Source: Trypanosoma brucei (lineage: Eukaryota). From it: 64,000 nt of DNA. The stretch is from NCBI GenBank assembly GCA_000002445.1, contig AE017150.2:160001-224000 (forward strand), in the 5' to 3' direction. Made by a program: the position numbers and the translations under genes. The notes beneath the pieces are model-generated. The model worked only from the letters and a program-made list of their open reading frames with translations. It did not search any database and was not told the origin of the DNA. This document shows, piece by piece, positions 10,501 to 50,946 of the stretch (the first letter of the stretch is position 1; every line of letters starts with the position of its first letter).

Positions 10501-10675
10501 TAAGAAGTTTTTTGGCGGCGATGCCTGAGAATAGTCAAGTCTCACTTCCCTATAATATAGTAATAGAAAAAATATATAACATAATTATAAAAAGTGCTTT
10601 CGTGCAAACGAGTTTTACTGAAATATAACTCATATCGTAAACGAAATTTATTGATACGTACATAACCGCCTCTAT

Positions 10676-18560: not shown

Positions 18561-19638
18561 TTGATCAAGTTGGCCCTTTTTCGCCTCCACGCAGTCAATT
18601 CAAAAAATATATTGCCGCATGCAACCTATTACTATGGAAACGCCTTATTGAATTCCACACTTCTGAAAACTTGCCCCCTGATTCTTCACAAGCTTGCGAT
18701 AAAAGCATAAACAAAAATAGAATCAGAAACAGAGACAGAGACAGTTTACACTGTAGAAAAGGACACCACAGTGAGTCACTCATTCTAGGAAGATAATCAC
18801 AAAAGCAAACACCCTCAAAAAGACAGCTCAGCGCCATAAAGCAGAACCTACTTACTACTAATAAGGAGTTGTGCCCCTTCCCTGCCAGTAAAGACACAAC
18901 ATTCCCCAACAAACACAGTGGAAGATCACAAGACTTATGACCCCTCCATACTAACCTAAACAAGACAGCGTGAATCACAATTGCATGCAATGCGCTAAGA
19001 ACCCAAAACGGTTCCGCACATTTGCCTCTGAGGATCCCTACTCAATCGCACCCCTACGCGGGAATCAATATTCTGCCTGTCACAAAATAACACAGCGGAC
19101 AGCAGAAGGAAAGGGGGAAAATAAAGAAACCCATCACAACACATAAGGATTTTAATGGGAACTTAAAGGAAACCTTCTAGATGAGAATGCTAACACCCAT
19201 ACCACAACAGTGCTCACAATCCTCTTGTATATCAGTGTTTAATTAGTTTTTCACAAAATGATTTGATAATCGTAACGATTCAAGGAATAAAAAAATGTAA
19301 ATGATAAGACACGACGCAACAAGCTGCCACATTGCCATTAATGGATGTATGTAATACCATTGTTACTATCCATTTCATTGTGACAACACATGCAAAATAC
19401 AATCGATACCACGGATTTCGTACGCCTTCCGTCGTGCGGTGAATCGCAGAGTGGATGTAAACAGTTGCGAAAGGATTACACCAACGCAACTGCAAGTTCG
19501 TTATGCTGCCAGGAACCTGTCCAGGATATATGATGAGTGAACTCCATTACCCAGACAAAAAATGTGACGCCTCCTCTTGCCCTTTCATTCGTTCTTCACA
19601 GTGTTTACCTCGTTGTTGGCTTGCCTGAGGTTCGTCAA

Positions 19639-21663
19639 TTACCTTCGGCCCACAGCAGCCACCGCAAGCATTTTGGTAACTATGTTATCCTCATACTGCA
19701 CATGGTACTGCTGCACATTGTTCTTCCAGAATCCCTCCACAAACTGGTGACTGCGGTGCTTTGCCTTACCCTGCGTAATTTCACACTTCTGCTCAGACCT
19801 CATCGCTGTGGATTCGAAGTGCTGAACGTAAATGATTTCCCAGTGAAACATCTCAGTAATTTCCTTCAACTGTTCAACGGTAGCCTCATTCTGGTGACCT
19901 CCCCCCTCCGCACTTGGAAAGAGGGATTGTAACAAATGAATGAATTCGTCGGTTGCTGTGTCATGGCTGCTGGCAACAGTAAACTGCAACAACACAATAG
20001 TTTTCTTCCCTATGGTTCCTGAAGCCTGTGCAGCCTGCTTTTCATCAACAATAAAGAATGCATCCGCTACGGGGTAGTTGGGAATGCATGGCACATATAA
20101 TTCCACCGGAGCCCCCTTCGACTCAGCCCAGTTGATGTCACCTGACACTGTGTTTGGTCGACAAGCATTGAGGAGGTCATCCCTTACGTGTTGCAAAATG
20201 CTTTTGCGTGTCCTCGTGCGCCTGGCCCTTTCATTTGCTGGAAGTTTCGTTATTAGACTTACGAAGCAAGTTAACACTCTGGGGGAACACAAATATTTAA
20301 TTGCATTCTTCTCAAAATAATGCCCGATGACAGATGCGTCCCGCGTCATACCAGACACCAGTGCCCACTCCTCAGCAATGCCGGAAAACACTACATTCAA
20401 AATTCTTTTCTTTATAGATTCAGAGTGAGGTACGCATATGTATATCTCACTATTGTTTCTCCCACAGGCACGAACAATCTTCACGAGTTTGTGAGATGCG
20501 TCACTTTCTCTCCATCCGCCTTTGTTACCCACCACGCCAATATAGAGTTCACGTCGCTCATGGGATTTGATGGAATTTATTTCATTGTCTATGTCGTCCT
20601 CACGCGTGGCATGCTTTGCTTCATCGAACACATAACGAAGTGAAGGTCCAACATGCTCCACACGGTTCTCATACATGTTCCACTTTTCCCTCAACTCAAC
20701 AGGCGTGGCTTGAGGAAAAAGCTTGGGTCCCACACGTGAGAAGAAAGCCCGCATTTCACTCATTTCCCAGCAGTTAACAACAATACGTGCACATCTTTCC
20801 CTCTGCTGGAACCAGCTGTCAAAATTTCTTTCATTATGTGAACTGATCAAAATGCTTCCCCATTTTGGAGCCACATCTGCCGGTGGCTGCTCACCTTTGT
20901 TGACGAAGTCATAAATAATATAACCACGTGTATTAGATGATATATTCTTCATAAACGTTATAGCCGCTTCTTTACTGTACTCCCTAACTCTGCCAACGCC
21001 ACCACCACCTGATTTCTCAAATATATATGCGGCTACACCACGGAAGTACGCAACAACAGGTAACTCTTCCGCATCATAATGCAGTAACTTGTAGAGGATA
21101 AAAGAACCAAAATTCTGAGATTTTCCAATCCCCGGGTTACCAATGGCAAGGTATGATCGTGGAAAATAAAGACATCTTGGCATAACACGTTGTGTACGCC
21201 ATAATTCAATTCCACTCCTTACAACATTCCATACACGGAGCTCTTCTCTGCGAATGAATATGTCACTGTTACTTCCCCGGGCAAAGCCTGTATATGGCCA
21301 ACCCATTTCTGAGGTAAGAACCAACAGCTCAACTCCTTTAGTGCGTTCCGGCTTCTGTTCAAGAGCTTCCTCAATTTCAGGCACGACATTAACTTCCTCA
21401 TCCTTCCACATCAAACCCTCATTGGGCATTCCATCAACCAAGCTCATTCCCAATGTTTGAGTTCCATCGTCGATAATAATATGACTCAATTTCGCATCAT
21501 AAATGGTATCGTATAATTTCTCTTCGAGAGACTTGCCCTCTCCGGTTTCTGATGGGTTCTCGTTTTCTCGGCCGGCTTGTCTCTTCATCGGGCGGTACGC
21601 ACCATTCAACCATCCATTTAAAACATTCCGAGTATCTCCCACACTACCGCCGTTCTGATTCAT
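19639..21663 (-). CDS. RHS: Retrotransposon hot spot protein (RHS), intact 674-aa ORF. N-terminal type is MNQNGG and C-terminal type ends ...VAAVGRR.
   Basis: It is a full-length ORF with the GNPGIGKSQNFGSF P-loop followed by ILYKLLHYDAEELPVVAYF. It is about 95% identical to the 675-aa paralogue at 45540-47567. An upstream U-rich tract with AG on the transcribed strand is consistent with a trans-splice acceptor. Confidence 0.85.
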   Translation of the reverse strand: MNQNGGSVGDTRNVLNGWLNGAYRPMKRQAGRENENPSETGEGKSLEEKLYDTIYDAKLSHIIIDDGTQTLGMSLVDGMPNEGLMWKDEEVNVVPEIEEALEQKPERTKGVELLVLTSEMGWPYTGFARGSNSDIFIRREELRVWNVVRSGIELWRTQRVMPRCLYFPRSYLAIGNPGIGKSQNFGSFILYKLLHYDAEELPVVAYFRGVAAYIFEKSGGGGVGRVREYSKEAAITFMKNISSNTRGYIIYDFVNKGEQPPADVAPKWGSILISSHNERNFDSWFQQRERCARIVVNCWEMSEMRAFFSRVGPKLFPQATPVELREKWNMYENRVEHVGPSLRYVFDEAKHATREDDIDNEINSIKSHERRELYIGVVGNKGGWRESDASHKLVKIVRACGRNNSEIYICVPHSESIKKRILNVVFSGIAEEWALVSGMTRDASVIGHYFEKNAIKYLCSPRVLTCFVSLITKLPANERARRTRTRKSILQHVRDDLLNACRPNTVSGDINWAESKGAPVELYVPCIPNYPVADAFFIVDEKQAAQASGTIGKKTIVLLQFTVASSHDTATDEFIHLLQSLFPSAEGGGHQNEATVEQLKEITEMFHWEIIYVQHFESTAMRSEQKCEITQGKAKHRSHQFVEGFWKNNVQQYHVQYEDNIVTKMLAVAAVGRR

Positions 21664-24600
21664 TTCACTCTCCGAATAATAATCTTAACTGAGTGTGTTG
21701 TGTTATTTCCTTTCTTTGTAACATAAATAATAAAAAAAAATTAAGATGAGGGAATTTAAAATGGATACGCTTCTAAACCAAAGCAAATATACAATAAATG
21801 AATATCAGGAATTAATATGGCAGATGGAAACTATTTACTAAAATTGAGATTCAATACAAATCTTATCATGTGTTAAGAACTCACAGCAACTTAAGCACAA
21901 ATGAGGTATGACAGTATGAATAAACATTTCTGTTTGGAGGAAAACTCAAACAACAATTCCCATTCATAAAACACAATCATTTCAGAAAAAATAATATACT
22001 TAGATATATATAAGTATGTATTGAAAAGCAAAAAAAATAAATAAATGTGGCATTGCCATGAAAAACAGGAAATAATAGTTTTAGTGATAAGCTATGCAAA
22101 ACGTATACTCAGTTAAAGGTACTCATGTGCATAATGAAGGCGCTTCACATTAAGAAATAATACAAACAACTATCAGAATTTGCGTATAATCTCACACGAA
22201 CCGTCACTCGGAATGGCATTTTGTCATAACTTCCTAATGTGGAAAAACTACTTCTAATACATACTCTCACACTCCGAATCAGTACACAGTGTGCAAATGA
22301 AAGTACGAGGTATCAAAAAAAAAAAACAATAATAATCGCCGTAAAAAGTAAAACCAATGAAAATAAAATCTTATACATCAAAGAGGAAACTCTCACCTGA
22401 CGAACAAATGCTGCTCACTTTCTTTATTTAAGTGATCCTTTTTTTTTTTGCAGCCATGGAACCATGAATCTAAGAAATATATATGAAGGCACGAATGATA
22501 TTTGTTTTGCTTTGGTATTGGAGCATCTTGCCATGCGTCTGCTTTTGTGCCTTAGTGAACCTCAAAGAAACCAAAGGCTCACGGAAGGGAACAAATATAT
22601 TTGTGGGAATAATAATTCAATATTAGGCTTCTTTTGAGGAGTGTGCTGAGTGGAATAATGGTGAAAAAGAAGTATTGAAAATTTATGCCACATGGGCAAA
22701 TGCTTTACAATATTTTCTCGCTGTCTGAAAATATGAAATATAGGGAATATATAAGGAACCAGAAACATAGGGAATATATGAAGTATAAGGAAATATATCA
22801 AATATAAGAAAATATATGATATATTCTGAAGTGCCGGATGTGTTTGTGCGTGTCTTCGTATGTGTTCTCTGCTTTATATATCACTAAATATTTTACACAA
22901 TTCCTTTTACTTTGCGTATGCTAATCGCTTGTTTCTCCCTATATAAATTAGTGGAAATATCCATTAGAGAAATAATAATTTACTTTTTTTCTTTTCCCTT
23001 CTCTTCCTTTCCCGCTAATGTTTCACCGTCTATTTTCATTCCTTATAAATATTGTAAATTTCATTTTGTTACTGTAACTATTTCCAAAAAAAAGTGTAAG
23101 TAAGAAACTTTAGTATTACATATCATAATATCTCTAAACTCCTCTTTTGTCATGTTAAGCTACTAATATTTTTATTTCCCATTCATTTTATTCAGCAGAA
23201 CATACAAAACCCCTCAAAAGTCCTTCCTTGTTTTTTTTCCTCAACATCATAATATACCTTGTGGAATATACAAATATATAATAACCATAAATGTGTTATA
23301 CATCTTCACAACATCAGAAACTTCACAAAATAATTGTGTTCCTCAATAAGCAGTGGCTGTGTTTCCTTTTACTTTCTATCAGAGTCAAACTAATTAATTA
23401 ATTACTAATAACTTCCTCCAGATATATTGCTTCTATTTTCTTGGATTATTCAGCAGCGTAACACCGGAGTCTTGAAATAAAGAGTCACAGTTCAAAGAAT
23501 ACAAAACAGTAAAAAAAATTAACAGAGACTCGCACCTTCACATTTGGTTGCATTTGGATACATCAAACGCATTTATTCGCCTCCTTGTGTTTTCTTTTTG
23601 GGGTGGGAGGAGTAAATGCAAAATGTATCAAGTTGACGAGTAGCAGAAATACAACACTTGATATAATTTCACTTACATATAAGCTTTCTTTTCCAACTTT
23701 ATTCCAATTCATAATATTTTGATAGCAATGTAATGCAGTATTCAGCCATAAACATTTTAACCATAAATATAGTAACTAATGTGTGAATGGTAACCCATGG
23801 CGATACATTCCATATGGAACAATACCACATTGTTAAATATACGCATGGAATTAAAACTATAGCACTAAATTGAAAATGAAAAAATAAAAGAGAGAAAGAT
23901 ATGAATTATCAAGAAAGGCATATTCTTCACTAACATGCACTTGTTTCAATATAATCATAATTTGAAGTTACGCTAAATGATAAGTGACCCAATATTCTGA
24001 AATGACACAATAACAATGATTCCATTATAGCAACTGTAAAATAATGATATGCAATAAAATAAATGATAAAAATAAATTAAAATACAGCAAGCAGTGCAGA
24101 ATATATTCTATTGCTATATATAAACATTTGCAAACAGATGAATACCTTTACTCATTGGAAGAAAATAATTAAATTCAAACTTCCTATGATTCTGCCAGTG
24201 TTTGTCGGCTACATGTGGGACTCAAAAAAAACAAAAAGTTTATTTTAAATAAACATGAAGAAAAGAAAAACTTCGCATGAAACCATAAGGGTATCCGTGT
24301 GAGTTATTCGCTACTGTCAAACATAGTTAACTTCACAACCCTCAAGAAAGAGAGAAATAATAAAAGTAAAAGTAAAATTTCAAGTAAAAAAATAAAATAA
24401 AAAGTAAGGAAATATAACATAATTATGCTTAACTAACTGTAATGTGAGGAATGTAAAAATAACAAAATGTTACTCACAATTTAATGTTATCAATGTTTTC
24501 CTTCACAAACGAAAACTGTCACATCTCAATGTGTTCTTTCAAATTAATGTAACGGAACCAGATATGTTTGTATAATATTCTACAATGTCATTTGGCATAT

Positions 24601-25096
24601 CCGATGCTCACTCAAAAAAAAACTTATTCGTTTTGTTGCGATGTAGCTGTTGACAGTGTTGTGCTCTTTTTCTTTTATTTTATTTTTTTTTAACATACCG
24701 CTCCGCACTTCCGTAATCCCCTCAATATTCCTGCAGTTCCCATCATAAAAGATACAAAAGAAATCCATCAAAATAAAGTAACTGGAGTCCAAGATGCTGT
24801 AGAGCACAATGTATTTATTTTGAATAATGGAATCCTGTGATATCAAAGACAATCATCTGCAATGAATAAACTGAAACATTCATTGACTCATGCCACTAAA
24901 ATAATAATTAAATTGTTAAACACATGTTCCCATCGTGTGGTAAGTAATTCAAACAATTCTGTGGCCACATGAAATACTCGAAGAAAAAGGAAACGTATAC
25001 AATGCATAAGCCATTAGTAAAGTATAAATACAGTTTTTGGTATCGAATCCATCATATGTTACAAAGCCGCATTTCACTAACACACAAGAGCAAAAT
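21664..25096. repeat. S cassette, copy 1 (about 3.4 kb AT-rich intergenic unit). The RHS 5' flank lies at its low-coordinate end. It sits between an intact or chimeric MNQNGG-type RHS and a truncated RHS.
   Basis: It is nearly identical to 32861-36317 and 47568-50946. It contains an imperfect GGAATATAT-like minisatellite (about 22700-22830) and a conserved spurious ORF (24580-24852). Confidence 0.8.
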
Positions 25097-26844
25097 TTAA
25101 CTCAACATCATATTTCGAATCATCAGTGATAGAGCTTGGCAACTGTACGATTCGATTCCTCCAACATTTGCCTTCACTCTTATAACCTTCACCAACTTGT
25201 CCGTAACTTCATTGTTCTTCCAGGCAGCCGTATGCTCAATAATATCATTATAGGAATATTCACCCGATTTCTTCATAGTTTCCAACGCATCATGAACTCT
25301 TTTCAGACGCCATTCATAACAGCTTAAAACAAATATATAACGAGGCAAAAGCCCAATTGAATTAATACGTCCCTCCACTATTCTTTACACTCATCTTCCA
25401 TTTCCTTCCTCAATTCGTGTCTTCTTCTGTTGGACACCTTTTCCCTTGCATGTATTGACAGTTTTTTCCATGCCACAAATGCCTTCATGTCACGCACATC
25501 ATCACAGTTTATAATAATTTGGCGGCCTCCCCTATTTGTAGTCCAGTTACCAAAACGGACACTATTCGGAGAAGTGAAAATAGTTACACCCCAAACATCA
25601 GAGGGAAGTTGAGTGTAAGGCTGCTGCGTTTCGTACCTTATGTCCATAATGATGTGTCCTCTGTTTTCAAATTTCATTTTATTTATGGCGTTGACCGCAG
25701 CTCTCAAATATTCGTACCGCACAACCCTTCCCTCTTTCATCACCCTTTCTGTTATATATTAAGTAGGCGATCGTGTCTGTGAAATATGCAACAACATCAA
25801 GCATTCCTTCATGGAAGTGAAGCAATGAATGAAGCAAAAATGATCCAAGGCCACATGATTTACCAATTCCAGACGTGCCAATAACAATATGTATCAGTGG
25901 TCTGTGAGCTGTCCTTTCCACCCACCATGTCTGCAGCCCTTTTTCGCCTTTATACCACACGCGCATAATTTCACGACGGATGTATACGTGCTGAAATACT
26001 GCTTTGCGCCCCGTAGTGTAATCCAATGCAAACCTGTTGTATGGCCAACCCTTCTCCGAAGTGAGAACAAAAATTTCCAAACCATCAGGCCTCTCCTCAA
26101 TCTCTGCATCAACATTGGTAGGATCACGAGTTACATCAACCCCCGCTTCGGTCCAAATGCGCTGTGGCCTTCCATCGAACACTTTCATTCCAAGTGGCTC
26201 TTCATTATAACCCGACATCACATAACTCCATTTCGCATTATATATGGATTCATACAATCCTTTCAGTACGACAGCACCACCAGCTGTTTGGGCAGCTCGT
26301 TTCCTTGCAATGCTTCCTTGAGTGCATTATCCAACATGTTAGTGACAATAATCCAAGTCTGCTCTCCATTTCTCAGTCCACGAATATCCGCCTGTAACCT
26401 GGCCTTTACTTCCTCATTTGCTTGTTGCCACTGCTGAAGATTTAATATTCCCTCTCTGAACAACAGGGGGTAAGCAGTAGCAAAAACTTTGTACGTCCAA
26501 AAGACAGGTAGAAAAAATATATCGTCCAGTATATCCTCTCTTTCAATGTATCGCTCCGGCTTTCTGGAAAACACAAACATTGATACATTATTTTCTTCAT
26601 TCACATTATATCTTCTGCCAACATTACGCCTCAAAAAATCATTCAACATCACATTTTCAGGATGTGGCAGACCTTTCAGCAAAACTGCTTCAACGCTGCT
26701 GAAAAGACTCCATTGTGGTTGGTTATTATTCTCCACTCGTTGCTGCACTGCTGGAGGTTCCGCATCGTTACGCGCAGCCTCCTCATGCCCTCGTCTCCTT
26801 CCCTCAATGTCACCCCTTCCTTCAATAGGAACCTGTTGATTCAT
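25097..26844 (-). pseudogene. RHS pseudogene with multiple frameshifts. It is the C-truncated type that ends RNMMLS, with N-terminal type MNQQVPIEG.
   Basis: Four consecutive ORFs in different frames (26263-26844, 25679-26257, 25378-25743 and 25097-25378) together align to the 579-aa ORF at 50947-52686. Confidence 0.8.
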
Positions 26845-27246
26845 TTCACTCTCCTAATAATAATCTTAATTGAGTGTGTTGTGTTATTTCCTTTCTTACT
26901 AACATAAATTTTAAAAAAGGGATAAAAGATGAGAGAATTTAAAATAGATACATTACTAAACCAAAGCAAATATAAAATAAATGAATATTAGGAATTAATA
27001 TGGCAGGTGGAAACTATTTATTGAAATTAAGATTCAATACAAATCTTATCATGTGTTGGGGCGTCACAGCAACTTAAGCACAAATAAGGTATTACAGTAT
27101 GAAAAAAATTTTCTGTTTGGAGGAAAACTCAAACAACAATTCCCAGTTACTTCACACCATCATTTCAGAAAAAACAATATGCTTATATATATGTATGTAT
27201 TGAAAACCAAAAAATAAATAAATGTGGCATTGCCATGAAAAAAAAA
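26845..27246 (-). promoter_or_regulatory. Conserved RHS 5'-flank block (putative 5' UTR, polypyrimidine tract and splice-acceptor region)
   Basis: A block of about 400 bp (tcactctcc.aataataatcttaa.tgagtgtgttgtgttatttcctttct...aaatgtggcattgccatgaaaaa) lies immediately upstream of five RHS start codons (21663, 26844, 32860, 47567 and 52686), regardless of N-terminal type. Confidence 0.5.
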
Positions 27247-30200
27247 GTTTCACACGTGTGGTCCAAAAGCTGCACCAGCCAATACGATATCTTGACAGCT
27301 TGTCATGCAGTCTTGCCTCAAGAAGAAAATAAAACATTCATCACTTGTTTCCTTAATTGATAAATGAGATCCCATGCTGTGTTAACTCACGTCTCCATTC
27401 AAAAAGTTGACTCAACGTTGTGACGAGGCAGTGACCAAAAACAATCCAAATGCAATTCTAAATTTCTTCATATTACGTTTTCAGTTTTCTTACACATTTC
27501 CCCAACCATTCCGAGTACTAACAGGAATAATTTGGTTCTATAATAATGCATGTGTTTTCTACACCTCTTTCATTTTGTTATGATCCGCACAAAAATTATA
27601 TATGTGGTTGTTGATTCGTCCTGTCAATCAAAGTAACAATCATAATAATTAATTTTCCCCTTTTCTTCATTTTTTCTATTAGCACATGTGCACCTTGGTG
27701 AGATCACTTTCACTCATTTGCACTGATTGGTCAACACTATTTAGTTCGTTATTCAACACACTCCCTTACATGTCCTCTTCTCACCATTTATAACCCACAC
27801 GAGCAGCATCAAATATAGATTGTGAAGAGGTATGAGATCACAAGGAGCTCGCTCTCATTGAGAAGGTTGGATGCGTCATATATATATAATCATGTAATCC
27901 CTTTTCATTTCAACAATACGCAAACCTCAACTGCGGAATCGACTTTGAATGTGTTGACCTCGTCAGCATGAAACGGAGTCCGCCCAGTGGCATGAACATT
28001 AATCTTATCAGTAAACATGTGTTTGAGGGTTGGTAATAAATGGGGTCAAATAAAACATAAGTGCGTATCATCTTCCCCGTTATGCCCGAGTGGAAAATAT
28101 ACATCATCTCCTTGAAGATAATTGTATCCATGTTGTATCAATTCCTCATCCAGCTCTTCATCCTTATCGGTACCCAAAGGCATTGCCATCGCCTAACTTT
28201 TCCGTGAATGCACTCACACCTTTGAGCTAACAACTTCCAGCAACTTTCCATCTGTCATACGGATCGGGAATCCATGAGAATTTATGATCATATCTGTGCA
28301 AATGCCTTTACTCATTGAAGGGCATGTTAACACACCATCAGTCATGAGATCCACTACTCCCTCAAGCCAGCGCCGTGAGGAAAACTTATTTCAGACCTCG
28401 GGACCGCGAACTTCTCTCGTAGCAACTTTAACTTTATTGTTCTACATCCATTGATATATCCGAGTCACTGGAAGGTGAGAGATGACTACATTTGGTCCAC
28501 AACAGCAGGCTGAGGGTATTTATATTCAAGAAAATTAGGTCTTGGTTTCATGGACAGCACGGGAGTTCATTTTTTTACCAAAATATCAAACTGACGAATA
28601 ACCGCACCTTTACTACTGGCAATACCATCACTATTAAAAGCATTGCGTCTCGCAACATTTCAATCTGTTGGAAGAATTATATCATACTCACCGTTGGGAA
28701 GTCTTTCCAGTTTCATCTCATGCTTGCAAAAAACAACACAACAACCATAGCCACAATTGAGCGAACTGCGGTTGTGTACACCTTTGAGTCTTCAATATTG
28801 TAACCTCTATAGCTCATAATGCATACCATCGTATTAATTCCTGCACCTAATATTTCGTAGTTGCTTAGGTTCATAGCCTTCGTCCAGCAAAGGGATCGTT
28901 GAGAGTAAGCACTTAACATAAGTACTGTGTCCATTTCTAATGTACTGATTATGCGCAATGGTTCCAACAGCTTTCTTGCTTATGGCTGACTATAATGTGT
29001 TTCGTGCAAATTGATTGTGATGTGTAAAGGAAAATAATGCTAGCGACAACTCCAAGTGAGTCTCGTGTACTACTCAATGTCTCTATGGTGAACTGCTATA
29101 AGATAGTCATTCGCTTCATCATATAAGTCAATGAATTCCACAACAAGCCTTCAGCTAAAATATCGTTAATCGATCACTTGCCTGAACTCAAGTTATCCAG
29201 GTGTTGAGAAATTACGGTGTGTTTCCCATCGCTAACGACAACATACAACCGCACGATCCTTCTGCCAACACAAACAATTTGAACACTCTTCTGACGGTCA
29301 TTTATCGCAATAGAAACGTAAGGATGCAAGCGGCCTGTGTTCCTCAGGGTTCGTAATACATCCCGACACAAACGGCTCATGTATCGATAAACGCACATCA
29401 GCACTTCATTGAGGAAAACTGTGTAGTATTTAAGAAATTCGTTGTGGCTGATATAATCCACTTCCTACACTCCAATATTGTACGCATCCACGTGTAAAAA
29501 AAAACGAATTATCCATGTCGAGTGTTACCTGACTAAGAATAGCAAAATTATTAACCAAACAGCAACAACTTTCACCCTCTGGGGTATCGCAAGGAGGGAC
29601 ATACACCATTCCCCATTGACTTGAATAGAGAAATAAGTTCGCACATGTGGGTCAATACACGAAGTCATGGTCACTCCACTGCTGCCGTTACATATGATCA
29701 CTGCATGGTTTTCGTATCAATGTTGATGATGATGTGGGATTTGCTGCTGGAGGCAACCAGCAACATAAGTTTAAGGTTGCCACGTGTGGAGAGAGGCCCA
29801 ACTGCCAACCCTCAAACAGGATAACAGACGTGATTATAAGTAAAGAGAAGACAACATATCATAGCATGTTTACCCACCGACAAATAATTGAAAAAAGAAA
29901 GAGAGAGAGAGAGGAAAATGGACACAATCAGGTCACCAGCTGCGTGTCTGCGAAGAACACCATCAAGAGCCGCTCCATAACTCTAATCATAACCAACATA
30001 TATAATATAATTATAACAGCTCGTATATGAGACAGCACATCCAGTAACTGCTTCTAATGTTTGCATATTTCACTCCGTCACAATCTCTCTCCCATGACAC
30101 CTACTGGACATACGACTCAGAGGAGTTATAGTTGAGGCATGTTTCCAATACGCCCTCTCCACCAAGGATGGCGAAGAAGCAAAAAGTACTATTACATTTT

Positions 30201-30535
30201 TGTTCCTTTTATCATTGGCCTATAGATTCCTATCTCTACACGGATGTAAAATTTAGATTGTATAAATGAAAAGAAGATGTGAAGAGTTAGCGTAGTATAA
30301 TTCAATCCTTTAGTTGGTAATAGCACAAATGAAAACAAAACGTTATAATGTTTTCTTACGTCCGTCGATAACATTATATCTGTCTTTCTCTGTGCCCCTT
30401 AAGATTACGATGTGGCTTAACTCCAGTTACGCGTTAGCCGATAAAATACTACTTTTACTATTCCTTAGTCGTCTTCATTTCCACTTCCCTTCCCTCACCT
30501 CCGGCACTCAAGTGAATTATCACGTCCCTTTCCTT
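27247..30535. repeat. B cassette, copy 1 (about 3.3 kb), upstream of a B-type RHS
   Basis: It is collinear with 56356-59650. It contains small ORFs conserved between the copies (for example 29174-29461 vs 58213-58587, and 29734-30030 vs 58852-59112), none with a recognisable domain. Confidence 0.75.
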
Positions 30536-30724
30536 GCAGCAGCTGCGGAAGCTCATTACTGGTGGACAAACAATACACTTGGAATGGCGCAACGGGGCAC
30601 TTCAAGTTGTGATCATAAACCAAACCAGGTACAAAAACGAACCCGCTCCCCCTAATGGTTGTTTCCCTCCTCTTTAAGCATTTGTCACTCTTAACAGCAA
30701 TGCCGTGCACTGCTAAAAAAAAAA

Positions 30725-32860
30725 TTACGCGTCTTCACCTCCTTCCACGTCGTCCATTGCTACGTCACCTCGCCCCTCCACAACCTCTTCACGAGCGCGC
30801 CGCCTTCCCGCCAGTCCCATCAATGCTGGTGCATCTCGCATGCCAGATTCTCGGCGATATGCCTGAATTAATTCCGCTTGCATCGTTTCCTTGAGTGTCA
30901 CTTGGAATTGGTCGATGGATTCCCAAAATGTTTGCGGTCCCAGAGGACCTCGGCCCTCACCTTGATCTCTATCGGGAGGTCCTCCGCAAAGTTGCCTGTG
31001 GGTTATCGTGCCACCGTTAACCGAATTAATGTATATCATCTCCCAAACCATGTCGCGGGAAAACGCACCCCAATCAGAAAAATATCTTGCCATGTTTTCT
31101 CGGAGCTTCTGCACCTTATCCGTAGTGGTGGGGTGACTGTCCGACTTGGTTACTTGTAAAAGCACAGCTGTATTTGGCGTGGTTGGTGGCGCTGTTCCGT
31201 CACGGTTTCTCCTGAACCGCCCCTCAACGAAAAAAAAGCCATCCACCACGGGTTCATTGCCTGTGGCAGGGAGGTAGAGAACCATGTGTTTACACTTCTC
31301 AATTGGTTGCTGTCTGGCATCTGGTAAGACTTCCCATCCAGTGAGGCACAACTGCTGAGGAGTCATGTCGTTCAGTATGCTTCGCTTCTCTTCCGGTCCA
31401 CCCGGCCTCTGCAGGTATTTTAAGTTTTCTGCGATAACTTTAAAAACTCGAGGGAAAAGAAGCGAAAGCAACGCAAGCCTTTCAAAAGCGTTGGCCCCGA
31501 GACACTCGTCTGATATTGTAATCTGCTTTGAAGTCATCTCCTCAATAAGAATGCCAAATAATGTGCAAATCAACATATTCCAAATGTTGACAGAAAGTGA
31601 TCTGCAACGATATGAATCGACATTGACAATCCCAGAGCTTACCCGCACTATCTTCACCAATTTGTGCGTTACCATATCATTTTGCCAGTACGAAGATTTA
31701 CTAATAACCTTATCGTATTTCTTTCCGTTTTCGCTATCAAACTTTCTAGCTTCTTTACGCACACATTTCAGTCGTTTGTGATAGACAGGGCCTGATAAAA
31801 CAAAACGAGGCAATGGACCAACCATGTCAATGCGCTCTTCCACAATTTTCCACTCGCTTTCAAGCTCCTCCATTAACTGCTGCCTCGTTTTGTCGCGCGG
31901 CGCCTCCTCCGAAAGCACACACAGCTTTTTCCATGCCACAAATGCCTTGATGTCGCGCACATCATCGCAGTTTATAATAATATGGCGGCTTCCCATGTCC
32001 TTTTCCCAGTGGTGAAAATGGGCCTCATCCGGAGAAGTGAGGACAGTTACACCCCAACCCAAATGGCGCAGCCCATCAGGCGGTATAAGTAAGCCCTTAC
32101 CGATGTCAACAATGATGTGACCTCTTTTTTTTCTTATTGTTTTTATGAAGGTAACGGCGGAATCGGTGCTGCTGTATTCCTCAACCCTCCCCTCTTCTCC
32201 GGGTTTCTTGTTATATATTAAATAGGCGATTTATCCCACGAAATATGCAACAACATCAAACATTCCTTCATTGAAGTGAAGCAGTGAATGAAGCAAAAAT
32301 GATCCAAGGCCACATGATTTACCAATACCAGGTGTACCAATAACAATATGTATCGGTGGTCTCTGTGCTTTTTCCACCCACCTTCCTTGCAGCCCTCGTT
32401 GAATTATATACCACACGCGCATAATTTCACGACGGCTGTATACATGTTTAAATACTGCTTTGCGCCCCGTAGTGTAGTCCAATGCAAACCTGTTGTATGG
32501 CCAACCTTTCTCCGAAGTGAGAACAAAAATCTCCAAACCATCGGGTCTCTCCGGCACTCGTGCATCAACATTCGCAGGTTCAGGAGTTATATCAACCTCC
32601 TCCTCCGTCCATATGCGCTGCGGTTTTCCATTAAACACTTTCATTCCAAGTGGCTCTTCATCATAACCCGACATCACATAGCTCCATTTTGCATTGTATA
32701 TGGAATCGTATAATTTCTCTTCGAGAGACTTGCCCTCTCCGGTTTCTGATGGGTTCTCGTTTTGTCGGCCGGCTTGTCTCTTCATCGGGCGGTACGCACC
32801 ATTCAACCATCCATTTAAAATATTCCGAGTATCTCCCACACAACCACCATTCTGATTCAT
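30725..32860 (-). pseudogene. RHS pseudogene. It is a chimera of the MNQNGG N-terminal 50 codons with a B-type body, with a frameshift or deletion at 32062-32230.
   Basis: The ORF 32231-32860 (209 aa, ends at GIGKSCGLGSFLLHSLLHF..AYFVG) and the ORF 30725-32062 (445 aa, B-type C-terminus) are separated by a frame-disrupting region containing a T9 run. The body is about 85-90% identical to the intact RHS at 59959-62484. Confidence 0.8.
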
Positions 32861-35800
32861 TTCACTGTCCGAATAATAATCTTAATTGAGTGTGTTGTGT
32901 TATTTCCTTTCTTTGTAATATTAATTTTAAAAAAGAATTAAGATGAGAGAATTTAAAATAGATACGCTTCTAAACCAAAGCAAATATACAATCAATGAAT
33001 ATCAGGAATTAATATGGAAGATGAAAACTATTTATTGAAATTAGAATTCAATACAAATCATATCATATGTTTAGAACTCACAGCAACTTAAGCACAAATG
33101 AGGTATGACAGTATGAATAAACATTTCTGTTTGGAGGAAAGCTCAAATAACAATTTCCAGTTACTGCACACAATCATTCCAGAAAAAATACTCACATATA
33201 TACGTATTGAAAACCCAAAAAAAATAAATTACTTCAACATTTCCATGAAAAACAGCATATAATAGTTTTAGCGATAAGCTATGTAAAATGTATAATACTT
33301 GGTTAAAGTTACTCATGTGCATGATGAAGGCGCTTCACATTAAAAAATAATACAAGCAACGATCAGAATTTGCGTATAATCTCACACGAACCGTCACTCG
33401 GAATGGCATTTTGTCATAACTTCCTAATGTGGAAAAACTATTTTAATGCCAACTCTCACACTCCGAATCAGTACACAGTGTGCAAATGAGAGTACGAGAT
33501 ATCAAAACATATACAATAATAGTCGCCGTAAAAAGTAAAACAAATAAAAATAAAATCTTATACATCAAAGAGGAAACTCTCACCTGACGAACAAATGCTG
33601 CTCACTTTCTTTAAGTGATCCTGTTTTTTTTTCTTCTTCTTGCAACCATGGAGCCATGAATCTAAGAAATATATATGAAGGCATGAAAGATATTTGTTTT
33701 TGTTTTTGGTATTGGAGCACCTTGCCATGCGTCTGCTTTTGCACCTTGATGAAACTCAAAAGAAACGAAAGGATTACGGAAGGGAACAAATATATTTGTG
33801 GGAATAATGATCCAATATTAGGCCTCTTTTGAGGAGTGTGCTGAGTGGAATAATGGTGAAAAAGAAGTATTGAAAATGTATGCCACATGGGCAAATGCTT
33901 TACAATGTTTTCTCTCTATCTGAAAAATATGGAATATATGGAATATATAAGGAACCAGAAACATAGGGAATATATGGAATATGTAAGGAAATATATCAAA
34001 TATAAGAAAATATATGATATATTCTGAAGTGCCGGATGTGTTTGTGCGTGTCTTCGTATGTGTTCTCTGCTTTATATATCACTAAATATTTTACACAATT
34101 CCTTTTACTTTGCGTATGCTAATCGCTTGTTTCTCCCTATATAAATTAGTGGAAATATCCATTAGAGAAATAATAATTTACTTTTTTTCTTTTCCCTTCT
34201 CTTCCATTCCAGCTAATGTTTCACCCGCCTATTTTCATTCCTTATAAATATTGTAAATTTCATTTTGTTACTGTAACTATTTCCAAAAAGAAAAGTGTAA
34301 GTAAGACAGTTTAAGCATTACATATCATAATATTTCTAAACTCCTCTTTTGTCATGTTAAGCTACTAATATTTTTTTCCCATTCATTTTATTCAGCAATA
34401 CATACAAAACCCCTTCAAAAGTCCTTCCTTGTTTTTTTCTTCAACATCATAATATATCTTGTGGAATATACAAATATATAATAACCATAAATGTGTTATA
34501 TATCATCACAACATCAGAAGCTATACAACAGAATTATGTTCTTCAAGAAGCGGTGTTTGTGTTTCCTTTTATTTTATCTCAGAGTCAAACTAATTAATTT
34601 AATAATTAATTACTAATAACATCCTCCAAAGATATTGCTTCTATTTTCTTGGATTACTCAGTAGCGTAACACCGGAGTCTTGCAATAAAGAGTCACAGTT
34701 CAAAGAATACAAAACAGTAAAAAAAATAAACAGAGACTCGCACCTTCACATTTGGTTGCATTTGGATACATCAAACATATTTATACACTTGCATTCCTAG
34801 TTTCTTTTTTGGGGGTGGGAGGAGTAAATGCAAAATGTATCAAGTTGACGAGTAGCAGAAATACAACACATGATATAATTTCACTTACATATAAGCTTTC
34901 TTTTCCCACTTTATTTCAATTCATAATATTTTGATAGCAATGTAATGCAGCATTCAGCTATAAACATTTTAACCATAAATATAGTAACTAATTTGTGAAT
35001 GGTAACCCATGGTGATACATTCCATATGGAACAATACCACATTGTTAAATATACGCATGGAATTAAAACTATAGCACTAAATTGAAAATGAAAAATTAGA
35101 AGAGAAAAAGATATGAATTATCAAAAGAAGCATATTCTTCACTAACATGCACTTGTTTCAATACAATCATAATTTGAAATTACTTTAAATGATAAGTGAC
35201 TTAATATCCTGAAATGACACAATAACAATGATTTCATTATAGCATCTGTAAAATAATGATATGCAATAAAATAAATAATAAAAATAAATTAAAATACAGC
35301 AAGCAGTGCAGTATATATTCTACTGCTATATATAAACATTTGCCAACAGATGAATAGCTTTGCTCATTGGAATAAAATAATTAAATTCAAACTTCCTATG
35401 ATTCTGCCAGTGTTAGTCGGCTACATGTGGGACTCAAAAAAAAAAACGAAAGTTTATTTTAAATAAACATGAAGAAAAGAAAAACTTCGCATGAAACCAT
35501 AAGGGTACCCCTGTGAGTTATTCGCTACTGTCAAACATAGTTAACTTCACAACCCTCAAGAAAGAAAGAATTAAATAATAAAAGTAAAAGTAAAATTTCA
35601 AGTTAAAAAAATAAAAATAAAAATTAAGGAAATATAACATAATTATGCTTAACTAACTGTAACGTGAGGAATGTAAAAATAACAAAATGTTACTCACAAT
35701 TTAATGTTATCAATGTTTTCCTTCACAAACGAAAACTGTCACATCTCAATGTGTTCTTTCAAATTAATGTAACGGAACCAGATATGTTTGTATAATATTC

Positions 35801-36317
35801 TACAATGTCATTTGGCATTGTCTGATGCTCACTCAAAAAAAAACTTATTCGTTTTGTTGCGATGTAGCTGTTGACAGTGTTGTGCTCTTTTTCTTTTATT
35901 TTATTTTTTTTTAACATACCGCTGCGCACTTCCGTAATCCCCTCAATATTCCTGCAGTTCCCATCATAAAAGAAACAAAAGAAATCCATCAAAATAAAGT
36001 AACTGGAGTCTAAGATATTGTAGAGCACAATGTATTTATTTTGAGTAATGGAATCCTGTGACATCAGAGACAGTCATCTGCAATGAATAAACTGAAACAT
36101 TCATTGACTCATGCCACTAAATTAATAATTAAATTGTTAAACACATATTCCCATCGTGCGGTAAGTAATTCAAACAATTCCGTGACCACATGAAATACTC
36201 GAAGAAAAAGGAAACGTATACAATGCATAAGCCATTAGTAAAGTATAAATACAGTTTTTGGTATCGAATACATCATATGTTACAAAGCCGCATGTCACTA
36301 ACACACAAGAGCACAAT
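32861..36317. repeat. S cassette, copy 2
   Basis: It is collinear with S1 and S3. Confidence 0.8.
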
Positions 36318-37049
36318 TTAACTCATCATCATATTTCGAATCATCAGTGATAGAGCTTGGCAACCGTACGATTCGATAACTCCAACATTTGCCTTCACTC
36401 TTACAACCTTTACCAACTTGTCCGTAACTTCATTGTTCTTCCAGGCAGCCGTATGCTCAATAATATCATTATAGGAATATTCATCCGACTTCTTCATAGT
36501 TTCCAACGCATCATGCACACTTTTCAGACGCCATTCATAACAGCTTAAACCAAATATATATAACGAGGCAGAGGTCCAATTGAATTCATACGTCCCTCCA
36601 CTATTCTTTCCACTCATCTTCCATTTCCTTTCTCAATTCGTGCCTTCTTCTGTTGGATACCTTTTCCCTTGCATGTATTGACAGCTTTTTCCATGCCACA
36701 AATGCCTTCATGTCACGCACATCATCACAGTTTATAATAATTTGGCGGCCTCCCGTATTTGTAGTCCAGTTACCAAAACGGACACTTATGGGGAAATCGA
36801 GAAACGTTACACTCCAAACATCAGAGGGAAGTTGAGTGTAAAGCTGCTGCGTTTCGTACCTTGTGTCCATAATGATGTGTCCTCTGTTTTCAAATTTTAT
36901 TTTATTTATGGCGTTGACCGCAGCTCTCGAATATTGGTACTGCACAACCCTCCCTCTTTCATCACCCTTTCTGTTATATATTAAGTAGGCGATCGTGTCT
37001 GTGAAATACGCAACAACATCAAACATTCCTTCATGGAAGTGAAGCAGTG

Positions 37050-37061
37050 AATGAAGCAAAA
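37050..37061. repeat. RIME target-site duplication, left copy (AATGAAGCAAAA)
   Basis: It is an identical 12-mer to 37590-37601, and the two copies immediately flank the element. Confidence 0.9.
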
Positions 37062-37298
37062 TTTTTTTTAGAATTTTCTTCGTGCCTTCGTGAGAGTTTC
37101 CCCCCACTGGCGCGGCCATCAGCCATCACCGTAGAGCCCTGAGATGCTATCGGTCTGGCGACTGTGGCAGAGTCTCCCTTTTTTATTCATCCTAACACAC
37201 CCTCTACAATTTTTGTTGTATTTCCGCATATGAACGGAATACAGCAGATGGGGCGAGAAGCCTCCCACCCCGGACTCTCCAAAGGATGCCAATTAGCA

Positions 37299-37336
<38 letters not shown>

Positions 37337-37589
37337 CGGAGTTCCACATCACCGGACAGCAGCATCTTAGTGCGGATGATACTGCTGATGGCACGCTGGC
37401 ACGTGCCCAGGGACCGACAAATGAAAAACGGTGTCCCAGCAAGACGCTGCTGATCCCTGTGCTGTATGATGCCGTAGCCGGAGCACAGCAGTGTTCCCCA
37501 TGAAAGGAACGCTGCTGGCTCTTGGCTTCCCCCGATGATACGGGGTACTGGACCCTGGCACCACGTTGAGGTGGCCGGCATCGCCAGGG
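37062..37589 (-). mobile_element. RIME (the ingi-derived short non-LTR retroposon), a complete copy with an A8 tail and an expanded internal A34 tract
   Basis: The 5' end on the minus strand is CCCTGGCGATGCCGGCCACCTCAACGTGGTGCCAGGGTCCAGTACCCCGTATCATCGGGGGAAGCCAAGAGCCAGCAGCG..., which is the ingi/RIME 5' signature. The 3' half is identical to the ingi 3' end at 16347-16580. It terminates in T8 on the plus strand (37062-37069). Confidence 0.85.
37303..37336. repeat. T34 homopolymer (A34 on the element strand) internal to the RIME
   Basis: It is an uninterrupted run of 34 T. The equivalent position in the second RIME copy (about 43267-43273) has only T7. Confidence 0.95.
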
Positions 37590-37601
37590 AATGAAGCAAA
37601 A
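37590..37601. repeat. RIME target-site duplication, right copy (AATGAAGCAAAA)
   Basis: It is identical to 37050-37061. Confidence 0.9.
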
Positions 37602-38472
37602 ATGATCCAACACCGTATGATTTACCAATACCAGGTGTACCAATAACAATATGTATCGGTGAATCCACCACTGCGTCATTCAGCCACCATGTTTTCAGAT
37701 CCTTTTGGATTTTATACCACACGCGCATAATTTCACGACGGATATATACATGCTGAAATGCTGCTTTGTGCCCCGTAGTGTAATCCAATGCAAACCTGTT
37801 GTATGGCCAACCTTCCTCCGAAGTGAGAACAAAAATCTCCAAACCATTGGGTCTCTCCTCAATCTCTGCATCAACATTCGCAGGAAGAGGAGTTACATCC
37901 ACCTCCGCTTCGGTCCATATGCGCCGTGGCCTTCCATTGAATACTTTCATTCCAAGTGGCTCTGTATGATAACCCGACATCACATAACTCCATTTCGCAT
38001 TATATATGGATTCATACACTCCTCTCAGTTCGACAGCACCACCAGCTGTTTGGGCAGCTCGTTCCCCCACTTCTTTGGCAATGCGCAGTGCCCTGTCCAA
38101 CTTTGTCGCTGCCACGGGACCAACAAATTCCCTTATTTCCCCTCTTCCCTTCTCCTCCCACTGACTGAGGGTGCTAATCCCATTACGAGGCAGATAAATA
38201 ACTGCCCTCAGTAATTGAAACTCATCAAGCCCCCGTATAATTCCTTGAAGCCTTGCATCCAAAATATAATCCTCCGGGCTCTGAACAAAAATGGGCATCC
38301 TAACATTTTCTGCTTCAGCCACCGCAAAAGTCCCGCCAACGAACTTCTGAATAAAGTCGTTCACTGTCATTTTACGCAAACCCGCATAATCTTCCAGCAG
38401 CACATCCCTCACCTTACTATCCATTGTCCAGTTGGGCCCCCCCTCATTTCTCTGCCGTATCTGTGGAGGCTG

Positions 38473-38496
38473 AGCAGCAGCAGCAGCAGCAGCAGC
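38473..38496 (-). repeat. (AGC)8 / (GCT)8 trinucleotide repeat encoding Ala8 in the RHS N-terminus
   Basis: It is translated as PPAPPAAAAAAAAQPP. The paralogue at about 62350 has only two Ala at this position. Confidence 0.9.
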
Positions 38497-38616
38497 AGGA
38501 GGAGCAGGCGGTACATTTTCATCCCGTGGCCTCCTCATGGGCCCTTCAATATTACCTGCCACTTGTTGGTTTGCATTATTTCCTTGTGGAGCTGCGGGAC
38601 TATTTGCTCTTGACAT

Positions 38617-40800
38617 AACTCTCTTAATATTATTAACTTAACTTCCTTTCCTTTCCTTTTTTCTCTGAAATTATAAATAACTGAAGTAAAATAATATATA
38701 AGGAAACAATAGTGTGTGAACAGTGTAACATAATATCAAATGTAATAAAGCGCGTTAATGTTTATTCACTATAGTTTGTATAATATGATATCATAATGTA
38801 TTTGGTATTGAGGGGAACAATTTCAAAATATAGCAGCTGTAAATAAATATTTCCCTTGCTTCATTATCATGTGCTAAATATAATTAACTTCCTGTATCAT
38901 TTCTTTCTAAACCATATATAATATGGAAACAAAAAATATTACTGCCTCATATACCTGCGTAAACACTTCGTATATATAATCAATATTTAAAGAGAGTCAA
39001 ATTCTATCAATTAAAATCAAGTAAAACAATAAACAATAAAATTTATGGATATTAATGAAACGAAGAAATAGAGTATCGGCACAACACATAGGGATATACA
39101 CACACATGAATACGCACTACACAACTGTTCCACTGGAGTTTCCTCACTTCTGTCAATACGTAACATTCACTTGCATTGAATAAACTCATTGAAAATATAA
39201 ATCACTTATCCCCTCCCCCGTGTATTCACTTACTTCCAAAGGAGAATATTAAATAATGTCTGTAGGACAGGTAAAAAAGAAACTGATACTCTATTTTGCA
39301 TCAGATAACCAAAAGGTATTTCCGTTTACTTTGATTATAAACAAAAACATCATTTCACCTTCAGTTAAAATAAAATTGAATTACTTGTCTACTCACTGTT
39401 CACAACTGTCATCAGCTAATTCATCCCCACATATTCACATGAATCTTATGTGCCATCGTTGTTGAATCCATTCACACATCTTCCATGATGGTGATTGCAC
39501 AACATACTGTAAATAATTGGAATGAAATTAATACAATTAATTGAGGAAACCGTAAAAGATTATCATAACATATCTTTTATTTTCCCTCCTTTCATTTACA
39601 CAAATTAAATATGTAATGAGACAATTCCCTTTCAGTACGTGTTCACACCTATTGTATCATCATTGTAAGTTTCCTATTGCTCATATACACGAAGCTACTG
39701 GAATAATAAAACAACACATTGAAACACCTTGAAAAAATATATAATAAATGTAAAAGAGGATGTATGAACTGACAGATAATAAAATGAAACACGTCTCGCA
39801 CTTTCCTTATAAATATTCAATAGTTGGTATGTTACAAATAAAAACAATTACACATTATAGAAAGGAAAGGATATAATTACATTATACACCTGTATGTGGA
39901 TATGTAACAGCGAATCATAGTAGAAATAAATTGTCTAAACACAATAGTTATGGAAGATAAAATAATTCAAAACATCAATAATATTATTCTATCAACATTC
40001 CCTTCCTTCTCCATTAAGTTTCCAAATGGTTTCAAATAATAATTCACATAATTCCATACATATGTTATGATGGGTATTGCATGCAGTACAACTTAAAGGA
40101 AGTGTAACTCATATAACATTTTCAAAAATAGGTGTTGAATGGTTGTTTGCTACCATCAATTACATTTCCAATGTCTGATTACACTTTTATATGCATGAAG
40201 GAAGTTACTGATGATAACTTTGACATGCTCGAGAATCCATAACACAAAGCGACTGCTGCATGCAATAAAAAATAAAAATATAAATAACATCCGAATTCAT
40301 TTACTGACAGATGAGTGCAAGTCATTCACCCAAACTTCATAGCTGCAGAAATAAACTCGCTGCTGCCAATAGGAAATGATCCCGCATAAATATTGAGTAT
40401 CTGAAAATGATAGCAACGGGTTTCCATTTTTGAAATATATGCATAAACTACATGAGGTATATGAAGCCATATTGGTAAAGTGTCACTACGCATGTTGCAA
40501 TTTACTATCAGAAGTGTCTGCCTTATTTTATTTCTTGTGTTAATGTAACTCATGAGTATCATTCATTATTCTTTACAATACAACTGTAAGTCATTTTGCA
40601 TTTTTACATATTTTCTTATTCCCTCATACTGGAAGTGTTCCACATATGAGATTCCTCAATATCGTTCACACAATAAAAATAATTTCATTTCCTTCTGCAT
40701 TCAGTTTCTTGTGCAGCAGTGTGTGCACTAATCATTCATAAAGTTTTTAATTTGCCAAATACATCATTACGAAACTATTTTCCACAAATAAACAAACAAA
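38617..40800. repeat. C cassette, copy 1 (the upstream region of MSRANS-type RHS)
   Basis: 38617-40130 is collinear with 62485-64000. 40038-40800 is collinear with 53246-54005. Confidence 0.75.
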
Positions 40801-50500: not shown

Positions 50501-50946
50501 TTGACAGTGTTGTGCTCTTTTTCTTTTTTTTTATTTTTTTTAACATACCGCTCCGCACTTCCGTAATCCCCTCAATATTCCTGCAGTTCCCATCATAAAA
50601 GATACAAAAGAAATCCATCAAAATAAAGTAACTGAAGTCCAAGATGCTGTAGATCGCAATGTATTTATTTTGAATAATGGAACCCTGTGATATCAAAGAC
50701 AATCATCTGCAATGAATAAACTGAAACATTCACTGACTCATGCCACTAAAATAATAATTAAATTGTTAAACACATGTTCCCATCGTGTGGTAAGTAATTC
50801 AAACAATTCTGTGACCACATGAAATACTCGAAGAAAAAGGAAACGTATACAATGCATAAGCCATTAGTAAAGTATAAATACAGTTTTTGGTATCGAATCC
50901 ATCATATGTTACAAAGCCGCATTTCACTAACACACAAGAGCACAAT
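47568..50946. repeat. S cassette, copy 3
   Basis: It is collinear with S1 and S2. Confidence 0.8.

Follow-up and report, generated by a model that had tools for sequence, protein, structure and literature searches.

A block repeated three times in a Trypanosoma brucei RHS gene array is probably an intergenic spacer duplicated along with its neighboring genes

We analyzed a window of 64,000 nucleotides of the Trypanosoma brucei genome (assembly GCA_000002445.1, contig AE017150.2, positions 160,001 to 224,000 of the forward strand), in which a block that we term S occurs three times between genes of the retrotransposon hot spot (RHS) family. The window is a head-to-tail RHS gene array on chromosome 2 of T. 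brucei TREU927, a cluster that was already known. Its large open reading frames (ORFs) on the minus strand all contain the RHS_N (PF20445) and RHSP P-loop (PF07999) domains, often together with DUF7578, with Pfam E values from 1e-18 to 1e-108, and the P-loop motif GxxGxGKS appears in the translations as GTPGIGKS or GNPGIGKS. Three of the ORFs are identical to the annotated TREU927 proteins XP_951494, XP_951495 and XP_951496, and AAL14354 and AAL14355 are among the accessions of the chromosome 2 proteins P0001 and P0002. RHS genes cluster at subtelomeres, approximately 60% of the copies are pseudogenes, and the retroelements RIME and ingi have their insertion hot spot directly after the P-loop (PMC6393297, PMC7563717). 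According to the same two papers, the division of the family into RHS1-6, based on the C-terminus, goes back to Bringaud et al. 2002 (Eukaryot Cell 1:137).

Each S block lies between two RHS genes; these and all other genes, blocks and retroelements described below are on the minus strand unless noted. S1 (21664-25096, 3433 nt) extends from the stop codon of an RHS3 pseudogene (25097-26844, four ORF pieces separated by frameshifts or stops) to the ATG of an RHS5 gene (19639-21663, 674 aa, XP_951494). S2 (32861-36317, 3457 nt) separates an RHS3 pseudogene disrupted by a RIME element (36318-38616) from an RHS4/RHS2 chimeric pseudogene (30725-32860). S3 (47568-50946, 3379 nt) is flanked by an intact RHS3 gene (50947-52686, 579 aa, XP_951496/AAL14354, with the N-terminal module MNQQVPIEG and the end ...MIRNMMMS*) and an intact RHS5 gene (45540-47567, 675 aa, XP_951495). 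A further intact gene, RHS2-like and with an MSRANS N-terminal module, is found at 59959-62601, with a likely start at 62484. An earlier inspection of this DNA, here the sequence-only reading, had described the genes downstream of S as A-type or B-type, and had proposed that S is a recombining cassette that split a B-type gene at the S2 locus. The A-type is RHS5, as evidenced by the product of 45540-47567, which shares a 90%-identity cluster with Q7K5P6 ('RHS5a', 'retrotransposon hot spot protein 5'), and the B-type is the RHS2-like gene, whose ORF 59959-62484 is intact as stated there.

The three copies of S are homologous, with pairwise identities of 93.9-94.3% (gaps excluded), far above chance. 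All three follow a stop codon that closes ...LSLMIRNMM[ML]S*, and all three end in a common 5' flank of ~450 bp, followed by the ~53 codons (MNQNGG...EEKLYD) with which the next gene begins, so that the existence of the copies and the description of their right end stand as first given. The gene following S1 and S3 is RHS5 and the one following S2 is of another type, as had been noted, although the latter is the RHS4/RHS2 chimera and not a plain B gene. S is AT-rich and has no long ORF. No ORF of at least 60 aa is conserved among the copies beyond short open stretches, mobility functions were not detected, as none of the S ORFs tested had a Pfam match, and scans of the window yielded neither Rfam families nor tRNAs (ARAGORN). 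At the S termini the longest direct or inverted matches are 6-11 nt and fall within shuffled controls (up to 13), and no terminal repeats or target duplication above chance were found.

For comparison we used RHS loci of T. b. equiperdum (L001, QSBY01000017.1; L002, CM010675.1; L004, CM010673.1; and two more, L003 and L005). S is a composite. L002 is a tandem array of RHS3 with a period of 5405 bp, in which the RHS3 stop is followed by a homologue of the left part of S (window 25096 to ~22534, 86% identical) and then by a 5' flank that is not the right part of S, but of the type found upstream of the B gene and upstream of 38616 in the window. The right part, a ~450-bp flank that we call class I (21664-22105 in S1, 32861-33304 in S2 and 48010-47568 in S3), also occurs upstream of RHS3 genes that have no left part of S before it, at 26837-27243 and 52679-53130. 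Because the left part joins another 5' flank in L002 and the right part occurs without the left one, the two separate between loci, and S does not behave as a co-moving unit: its two ends are not always found together, and its left end is continuous with RHS3 at each of the loci aligned. Both S and the class-I flank are absent from L003 and L005, which are arrays of RHS genes of ~690 aa.

The sequence-only reading had taken the stop codon at the left edge of S as an identical premature stop about two-thirds of the way through an RHS gene. The stop is present at all three copies, but it is where proteins of RHS3, a subfamily already described, normally end, and can be called premature in an evolutionary sense only. 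This follows from the C-terminus of the 576-aa 'RHS3' entry Q8WPQ6 in UniProt, ...LSLMTRNMMMS, and from that of RHS proteins of 557-590 aa encoded in T. b. equiperdum and on further contigs of chromosome size, ...MIRNMMM[SN], which share the same end. In addition, the product of 50947-52686 is 70% identical to Q8WPQ6 across its full length and terminates at the same point. At all five RHS3 loci (three in the window and two in L002) the alignment runs unbroken from the coding sequence through the stop and into S.

The DNA past this stop appears to have been coding itself. In an anchored DNA alignment, a 59-nt stretch located 81-140 nt beyond the stop gives a collinear match to RHS2 DNA coding for ...ALLSLLFPRVFKVIAEN, with z up to 5 against shuffled sequences, in S1-S3 and in L002. 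A profile hidden Markov model (HMM), built from 23 long RHS proteins and restricted to the portion beyond the RHS3 end, produced collinear matches in forward frames over the initial ~560 nt of S, with profile positions 13-111 corresponding to residues 13-113 and positions 200-239 to residues 149-188. The scores were 13.4, 9.1, 7.8, 5.6, 5.3 and 4.5 bits, against a best control of 4.4 bits in 3000 shuffled frames and of -1.6 bits in 45 frames from other AT-rich spacers. Conventional searches were uninformative: searching S by tblastn with the B and RHS5 proteins returned nothing under E = 6 at a cut-off of 10, and a word size of 2 gave scattered weak matches only. On the strength of the profile and the anchored alignment, the first ~560 nt of S (~24537-25096 in S1) read as decayed RHS C-terminal coding sequence, and RHS3 as an RHS lineage that was apparently shortened by an old nonsense codon in place. 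Since the alignment of the RHS3 loci continues uninterrupted through the stop, and since the sequence past it appears to be decayed coding sequence, the left edge of S is not a junction.

Note that an RHS3-like gene without S is present in L001. Its RHS3 homology ends 12 nt before its own stop (11746-11760) and ~36 nt before the equivalent of the window RHS3 stop, and the gene runs on into unrelated, GC-richer sequence that adjoins an ORF resembling a variant surface glycoprotein (VSG). We considered this locus as an empty S site and rejected it, as it represents an independent truncation with a breakpoint near, and not at, the RHS3 stop.

The right edge of S lies inside coding sequence and proved to be shared far more widely. 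Three N-terminal modules are combined with different RHS bodies: MNQNGG... (52 aa) is found on RHS1, RHS4 and RHS5 bodies, intact genes included, MNQQVPIEG... on RHS2, RHS3 and RHS6, and MSRANS... on RHS1, RHS2, RHS3 and RHS4. All three are joined to the bodies at Y[DE]SIYNAKWSY. In the gene downstream of S2, the homology of S changes type inside a ~37-nt stretch that codes for this motif and is common to all RHS types (about 32713-32677). The same S with the same MNQNGG module is followed by RHS5, by RHS4/2 and, in L004, by RHS1 bodies, and the RHS4 protein P0015 is 95-97% identical to the gene downstream of S2 across the join between MNQNGG and RHS_N. From these comparisons, the right edge of S is a module boundary common to the family. 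The idea that S recombines through RHS homology is thereby retained in part: exchange driven by homology inside RHS coding sequence is real in this region, with gene modules and multigene blocks as its units, whereas S is not a discrete unit and has fragmented no gene. As a side observation, the MSRANS module contains a poly-alanine tract coded by a GCT/AGC triplet run (38473-38507, minus strand), whose length differs among RHS copies, with AAAAAAAA in the window and a shorter tract in Q8WPQ6 and in the B gene.

The two genes adjoining S2 had been regarded as the halves of one B-type gene. The upstream one, 36318-38616, is an RHS3 pseudogene with an MSRANS module as in Q8WPQ6, interrupted by a RIME element and by frameshifts near 36607 and 36557. 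It resembles B solely in its 5' flank and in the MSRANS module, to about 38100; between about 38070 and the stop, its identity is 91-98% to the two remaining RHS3 copies, versus 40-85% to B. Its match to Q8WPQ6 spans residues 1 to 576, with 92.5% identity in the last 80 residues, and intact RHS3 genes with the same MSRANS N-terminus are known outside this locus. The downstream gene, 30725-32860, has a frame of 711 codons with a lone in-frame stop at codon 210 (32231-32233) and is a chimera. Its first 300 codons, including the MNQNGG module, are RHS4-like: in most windows of 40 residues they share 88-97% identity with P0015, dropping to 60-72% near residues 100-180. From codon 300 to 711 the gene is RHS2-like, with identities of mostly 85-100% to XP_951479, XP_951483 and P0005, dips to about 60-75% around residues 340-400 and 460-540 and a tail identical to that of XP_951479. 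With respect to B, this gene diverges strongly in several stretches, and the S2 locus also departs from B in the C-terminal tail and over the initial few hundred nt of 3' flank. The B residues covered are 24-638 for 36318-38616 and 218-862 for 30725-32860. As ~420 B codons are thus represented in both, the neighbors of S2 are not halves of one gene, but two complete genes in tandem, an RHS3 pseudogene and an RHS4/RHS2 chimera. Alignment of 30530-38700 with 59650-62600, which had been set beforehand as the check, was not collinear and did not correspond to a B gene plus an insertion, the outcome that had been named in advance as refuting the proposal. The defects of the two genes are not caused by S, but consist of the RIME and the frameshifts upstream and of one nonsense codon downstream.

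The RIME in the upstream gene (37062-37584) is an element of ~520 nt with an internal A run and an A-rich 3' end. It is inserted five codons (YGVGS) beyond the P-loop GTPGIGKS, and is bordered by a 17-nt target duplication, TTTTGCTTCATTC[C/A]CTG, at 37585-37601 and 37045-37061. The homologous site in L004 is uninterrupted and contains the 17-mer as a single copy. The 5' sequence of the element, GCGATGCCGGCCACCTCAACGTGGTGCCAGGGTCCAGTACCCC, resembles the conserved 5' signature of ingi, RIME and L1Tc. Self-comparison located further copies of it in the window at 43037-43508 and 16338-16597. The former belongs to a second element at the same hot-spot position, in 44170-41606, and L004 lacks both RIMEs. 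We also observed that this second RIME-like element (43037-43508, minus strand) is 5'-truncated and without an A-tail, and that ~112 nt (43509-43620, minus strand) lie between the P-loop codons of the RHS gene and the element. No tRNA was found in this segment with ARAGORN, and both segment and element are missing from the uninterrupted homologous gene of L004. A third insertion at the hot spot is a 3' fragment of ingi (16338 to ~17896) that retains only the C2H2 zinc-finger ORF according to Pfam (16838-17977) and is followed by an RHS1-like 3' part (14885-16333). The resulting arrangement, 18311-14885, is chimeric, leading from an unrelated RHS 5' part through ingi to the RHS1 3' part.

As evidenced by self-comparison, S1 and S3 are embedded in nested duplications. 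A duplicate of 9.3 kb, comprising RHS3, S, RHS5 and the downstream flank, relates 27243-17896 to 53080-43794 at 91-95% identity. It is itself nested in a higher-order duplicate that relates 32707-16349 to 61884-43037 and whose unit begins at the start of RHS_N in a gene of RHS2 type and runs to the 3' end of the retroelement at the hot spot of an RHS pseudogene. Copy I (43037-61884, ~19 kb) contains the body of the B gene, its 3' flank, an extra 3.2 kb, RHS3, S3 and RHS5, and copy II (16349-32707, ~16 kb) an RHS2-type body, a 3.3-kb 3' flank, the RHS3 pseudogene, S1 and RHS5. Each then continues with the 5' portion of a further RHS pseudogene, as far as the 3' end of a RIME in copy I and of a retroelement in copy II, which has the ingi fragment at its right junction. 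The two copies are 92-94% identical from 30538 downwards and 83-90% identical in the first 1.7 kb, between 32707 and 31011.

A difference of comparable extent is seen between loci. L004 is collinear with 43974-32571 and with 16333-5030 of the window at 90-94% identity, and the 16.2-kb block in between, 16334-32571, is absent from it. The left edge of this difference falls in the conserved first ~45 codons of RHS_N (32707-32571), and its right edge coincides with the ingi 3' end at the hot spot (16333-16338). The block whose ends lie inside RHS coding sequence is therefore a multigene block of ~16 kb and not S. In L004 itself, S is followed by P0049, an intact RHS1 gene of the MNQNGG type. L004 also carries an RHS1 segment of ~290 nt (10296-10589) that has no close counterpart in the window. 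For this reason the L004 arrangement cannot be derived from that of the window by a single deletion, and the comparison would favor the window arrangement as the derived state.

Taken together, we consider S to be an ordinary spacer between RHS3 and the next RHS gene that was copied with its neighbors by segmental duplication and is neither mobile nor gene-splitting, a reading to which we assign a probability of roughly 85%. S is made up of four parts: ~0.56 kb of decayed C-terminal RHS coding sequence, which is no longer translated owing to the old nonsense codon by which the short RHS3 subfamily is defined; an RHS3-specific 3' flank of ~2 kb, which in S1 reaches to ~22534; a T-rich 5' flank of ~0.45 kb common to many RHS genes; and the short N-terminal module MNQNGG...EEKLYD, also found on intact RHS1, RHS4 and RHS5. 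The class-I flank presumably holds putative trans-splicing signals for the next gene and polyadenylation signals for RHS3, as is usual for trypanosome intergenic regions. An RHS gene consists, in order, of an N-terminal module, the core of RHS_N and P-loop, and the C-terminus of its subfamily. Homologous recombination, by unequal crossing-over or gene conversion, at the conserved RHS_N start and at retroelement or hot-spot sequence may have duplicated blocks and re-joined modules. The three copies of S would stem from the duplication of the surrounding genes, with S carried along passively as the RHS3-to-next-gene spacer and not moving itself.

Four observations weigh against this reading or restrict it. 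In absolute terms, the signal for decayed coding sequence past the RHS3 stop is weak (13 bits at most), and it is weakest in S3. The left boundary of copy II is blurred: from 32707 to 31917, where the gene is RHS4-like, its identity to copy I drops to 83%. L004 is probably a paralogous cluster and not the orthologue, since the locus is only 90-94% identical to the window, whereas its RHS1 gene shares 97.5% identity with a protein that TREU927 encodes on a different contig. We have rejected it as the orthologous locus on these grounds, and it therefore fixes neither when nor in which direction the 16-kb difference arose. Finally, the S copies are about equidistant, ~6% apart, a pattern that fits near-simultaneous duplication or a later homogenisation by gene conversion.

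This last point leads to the alternative of concerted evolution, in which RHS3, S and the MNQNGG module would form a favored gene-conversion tract that was repeatedly copied between arrays, a conversion unit although not a mobile one. Besides the near-equal distances of ~94% among S1, S2 and S3, the S of L004 is about equally close to S3 (93.7%) and S2 (92.2%), and the S2 unit, 38070-32700, is exactly one array period with both edges near an RHS_N start. Equal distances are however also expected for duplications of like age, S1 and S3 are contained in longer duplicates (9.3 kb and 16-19 kb) of the same identity that render a tract specific to S unnecessary, and we saw no tract boundaries sharper than the module boundaries. 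We thus regard this alternative as quite unlikely. An extended form of it, in which RHS3 body, spacer and MNQNGG module are a preferred conversion tract and the hot-spot retroelements provide fixed 'handles' for copying multigene blocks between subtelomeric arrays, and in which, separately, RHS3 was born of a single old nonsense mutation with its former coding C-terminus now serving as 3' untranslated region, is a speculation that we hold to be doubtful.

The original proposal, a discrete cassette that inserts or converts via flanking RHS homology and that split one B-type gene around S2, does draw on real features of the locus. On either side, the S2 locus is bordered by B-like outer flanks (5' flank plus N-terminal module, 40119-37589 versus 64000-61463, 87.6%; 3' flank, 30538-27238 versus 59652-56345, 94%), and the homology of S has its right end inside coding sequence. 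Yet the two supposed halves have ~420 B codons in common, the upstream one is of RHS3 type from about 38070 with intact genes of its MSRANS type existing elsewhere, the first 300 codons of the downstream one are RHS4-like, and their defects are a RIME, frameshifts and one nonsense codon and not S. Moreover, S is devoid of terminal repeats and target duplication, its left and right parts separate in L002, and its left edge is continuous, so that we judge a cassette to be highly improbable. That S is a degenerate retroelement (ingi, RIME, DIRE or SIDER) which brought RHS flanks by transduction is hardly credible in spite of the retroelement-rich cluster (RIME 37062-37584, RIME-like 43037-43508, ingi 16338-17896) and the AT-rich nature of S without a long ORF, as S shows no similarity to the RIME and ingi copies of the window by self-comparison, its tested ORFs match no Pfam family, its ends lack an A-tail and a target duplication, its start is collinear with RHS C-terminal coding sequence, and its end is an ordinary RHS 5' flank that is also present upstream of RHS3 genes.

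The spacer reading places the locus fully within what is known of T. brucei RHS clusters, from which it shows no essential difference: organism and proteins are the same, as are the head-to-tail array of subtelomeric type, the subfamilies defined by C-terminus, the many pseudogenes and the RIME and ingi insertions after the P-loop. RHS pseudogenes may come from recombination between RHS variants (PMC6393297, PMC7563717), and T. cruzi RHS genes are mosaics that arose via unequal crossing-over and gene conversion (PMC7563717). As in T. brucei pseudogenes that became chimeric by recombination at or near the retroelement hot spot, and in the T. cruzi mosaics (PMC7563717), unlike 5' and 3' parts are joined here, in 30725-32860 and in 18311-14885, and the junctions fall within RHS coding sequence, in conserved stretches and where RIME/ingi elements sit. 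What is exchanged or duplicated differs, being a multigene block of ~16 kb here and a short intragenic tract there. A comparison with bacterial Rhs/YD-repeat toxin loci should not be made, as the likeness is limited to the acronym and to a superficial 'cassette' starting inside conserved coding sequence. The proteins are unrelated, here with RHSP P-loop and RHS_N in a eukaryotic genome, without YD repeats and without a toxin or immunity gene. A model of bacterial toxin and orphan cassettes was rejected because the Pfam scan returned trypanosome RHSP, RHS_N and DUF7578 only, with no RHS_repeat match of the YD/RHS repeat family in the large ORFs of the window.

The pattern of S is thus real and its meaning ordinary, covered by existing descriptions of the RHS family, in which recombination of this kind is already known. 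The locus is part of the T. brucei reference genome, and accounts of the family's clusters, subfamilies, retroelement hot spot and recombinant pseudogenes date from 2002. The main use of the analysis is a correction of annotation, in that the family is that of the trypanosome retrotransposon hot spot and the 'cassette' a duplicated intergenic spacer, and it is of little wider importance. What may be new is the decayed C-terminal coding sequence past the RHS3 stop, as well as an explicit map of how three N-terminal modules are shuffled. Of possible interest to specialists are the coding trace itself and the difference of a 16-kb block between two otherwise collinear RHS loci.

Several sequences in the vicinity deserve a brief description. 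The 3.3-kb 3' flank shared by the RHS2-type genes contains a 124-aa ORF at 58213-58587 (minus strand), with a paralogous stretch at about 29100-29470, that matches Pfam RNA_pol_Rpb2_4 (E = 2e-11) and looks like a fragment or pseudogene of the second-largest subunit of RNA polymerase. At the other end of the window, a leucine-rich-repeat protein of 989 aa with matches to several LRR families of Pfam (69-3038, plus strand) adjoins the RHS cluster on the opposite strand. An inverted RHS5-like fragment at 7937-8305 (plus strand) is 83.5% identical to 21043-21411 and 46947-47315 and lies near a change of sign in GC skew; the RHS array may be bordered here by a strand-switch region, and the same inverted fragment is found in L004 at 18740-19204. 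The ~2 kb at 11634-13607, without a long ORF, are 89.5% identical to L001 7396-9376, upstream of the RHS3-like gene described above, and constitute a dispersed repeat of RHS clusters. A second repeat, of 773 bp, occupies spacers upstream of RHS genes, with 53246-54018 being 96% identical to 40038-40808 and 95.6% identical to L004 2618-3388.

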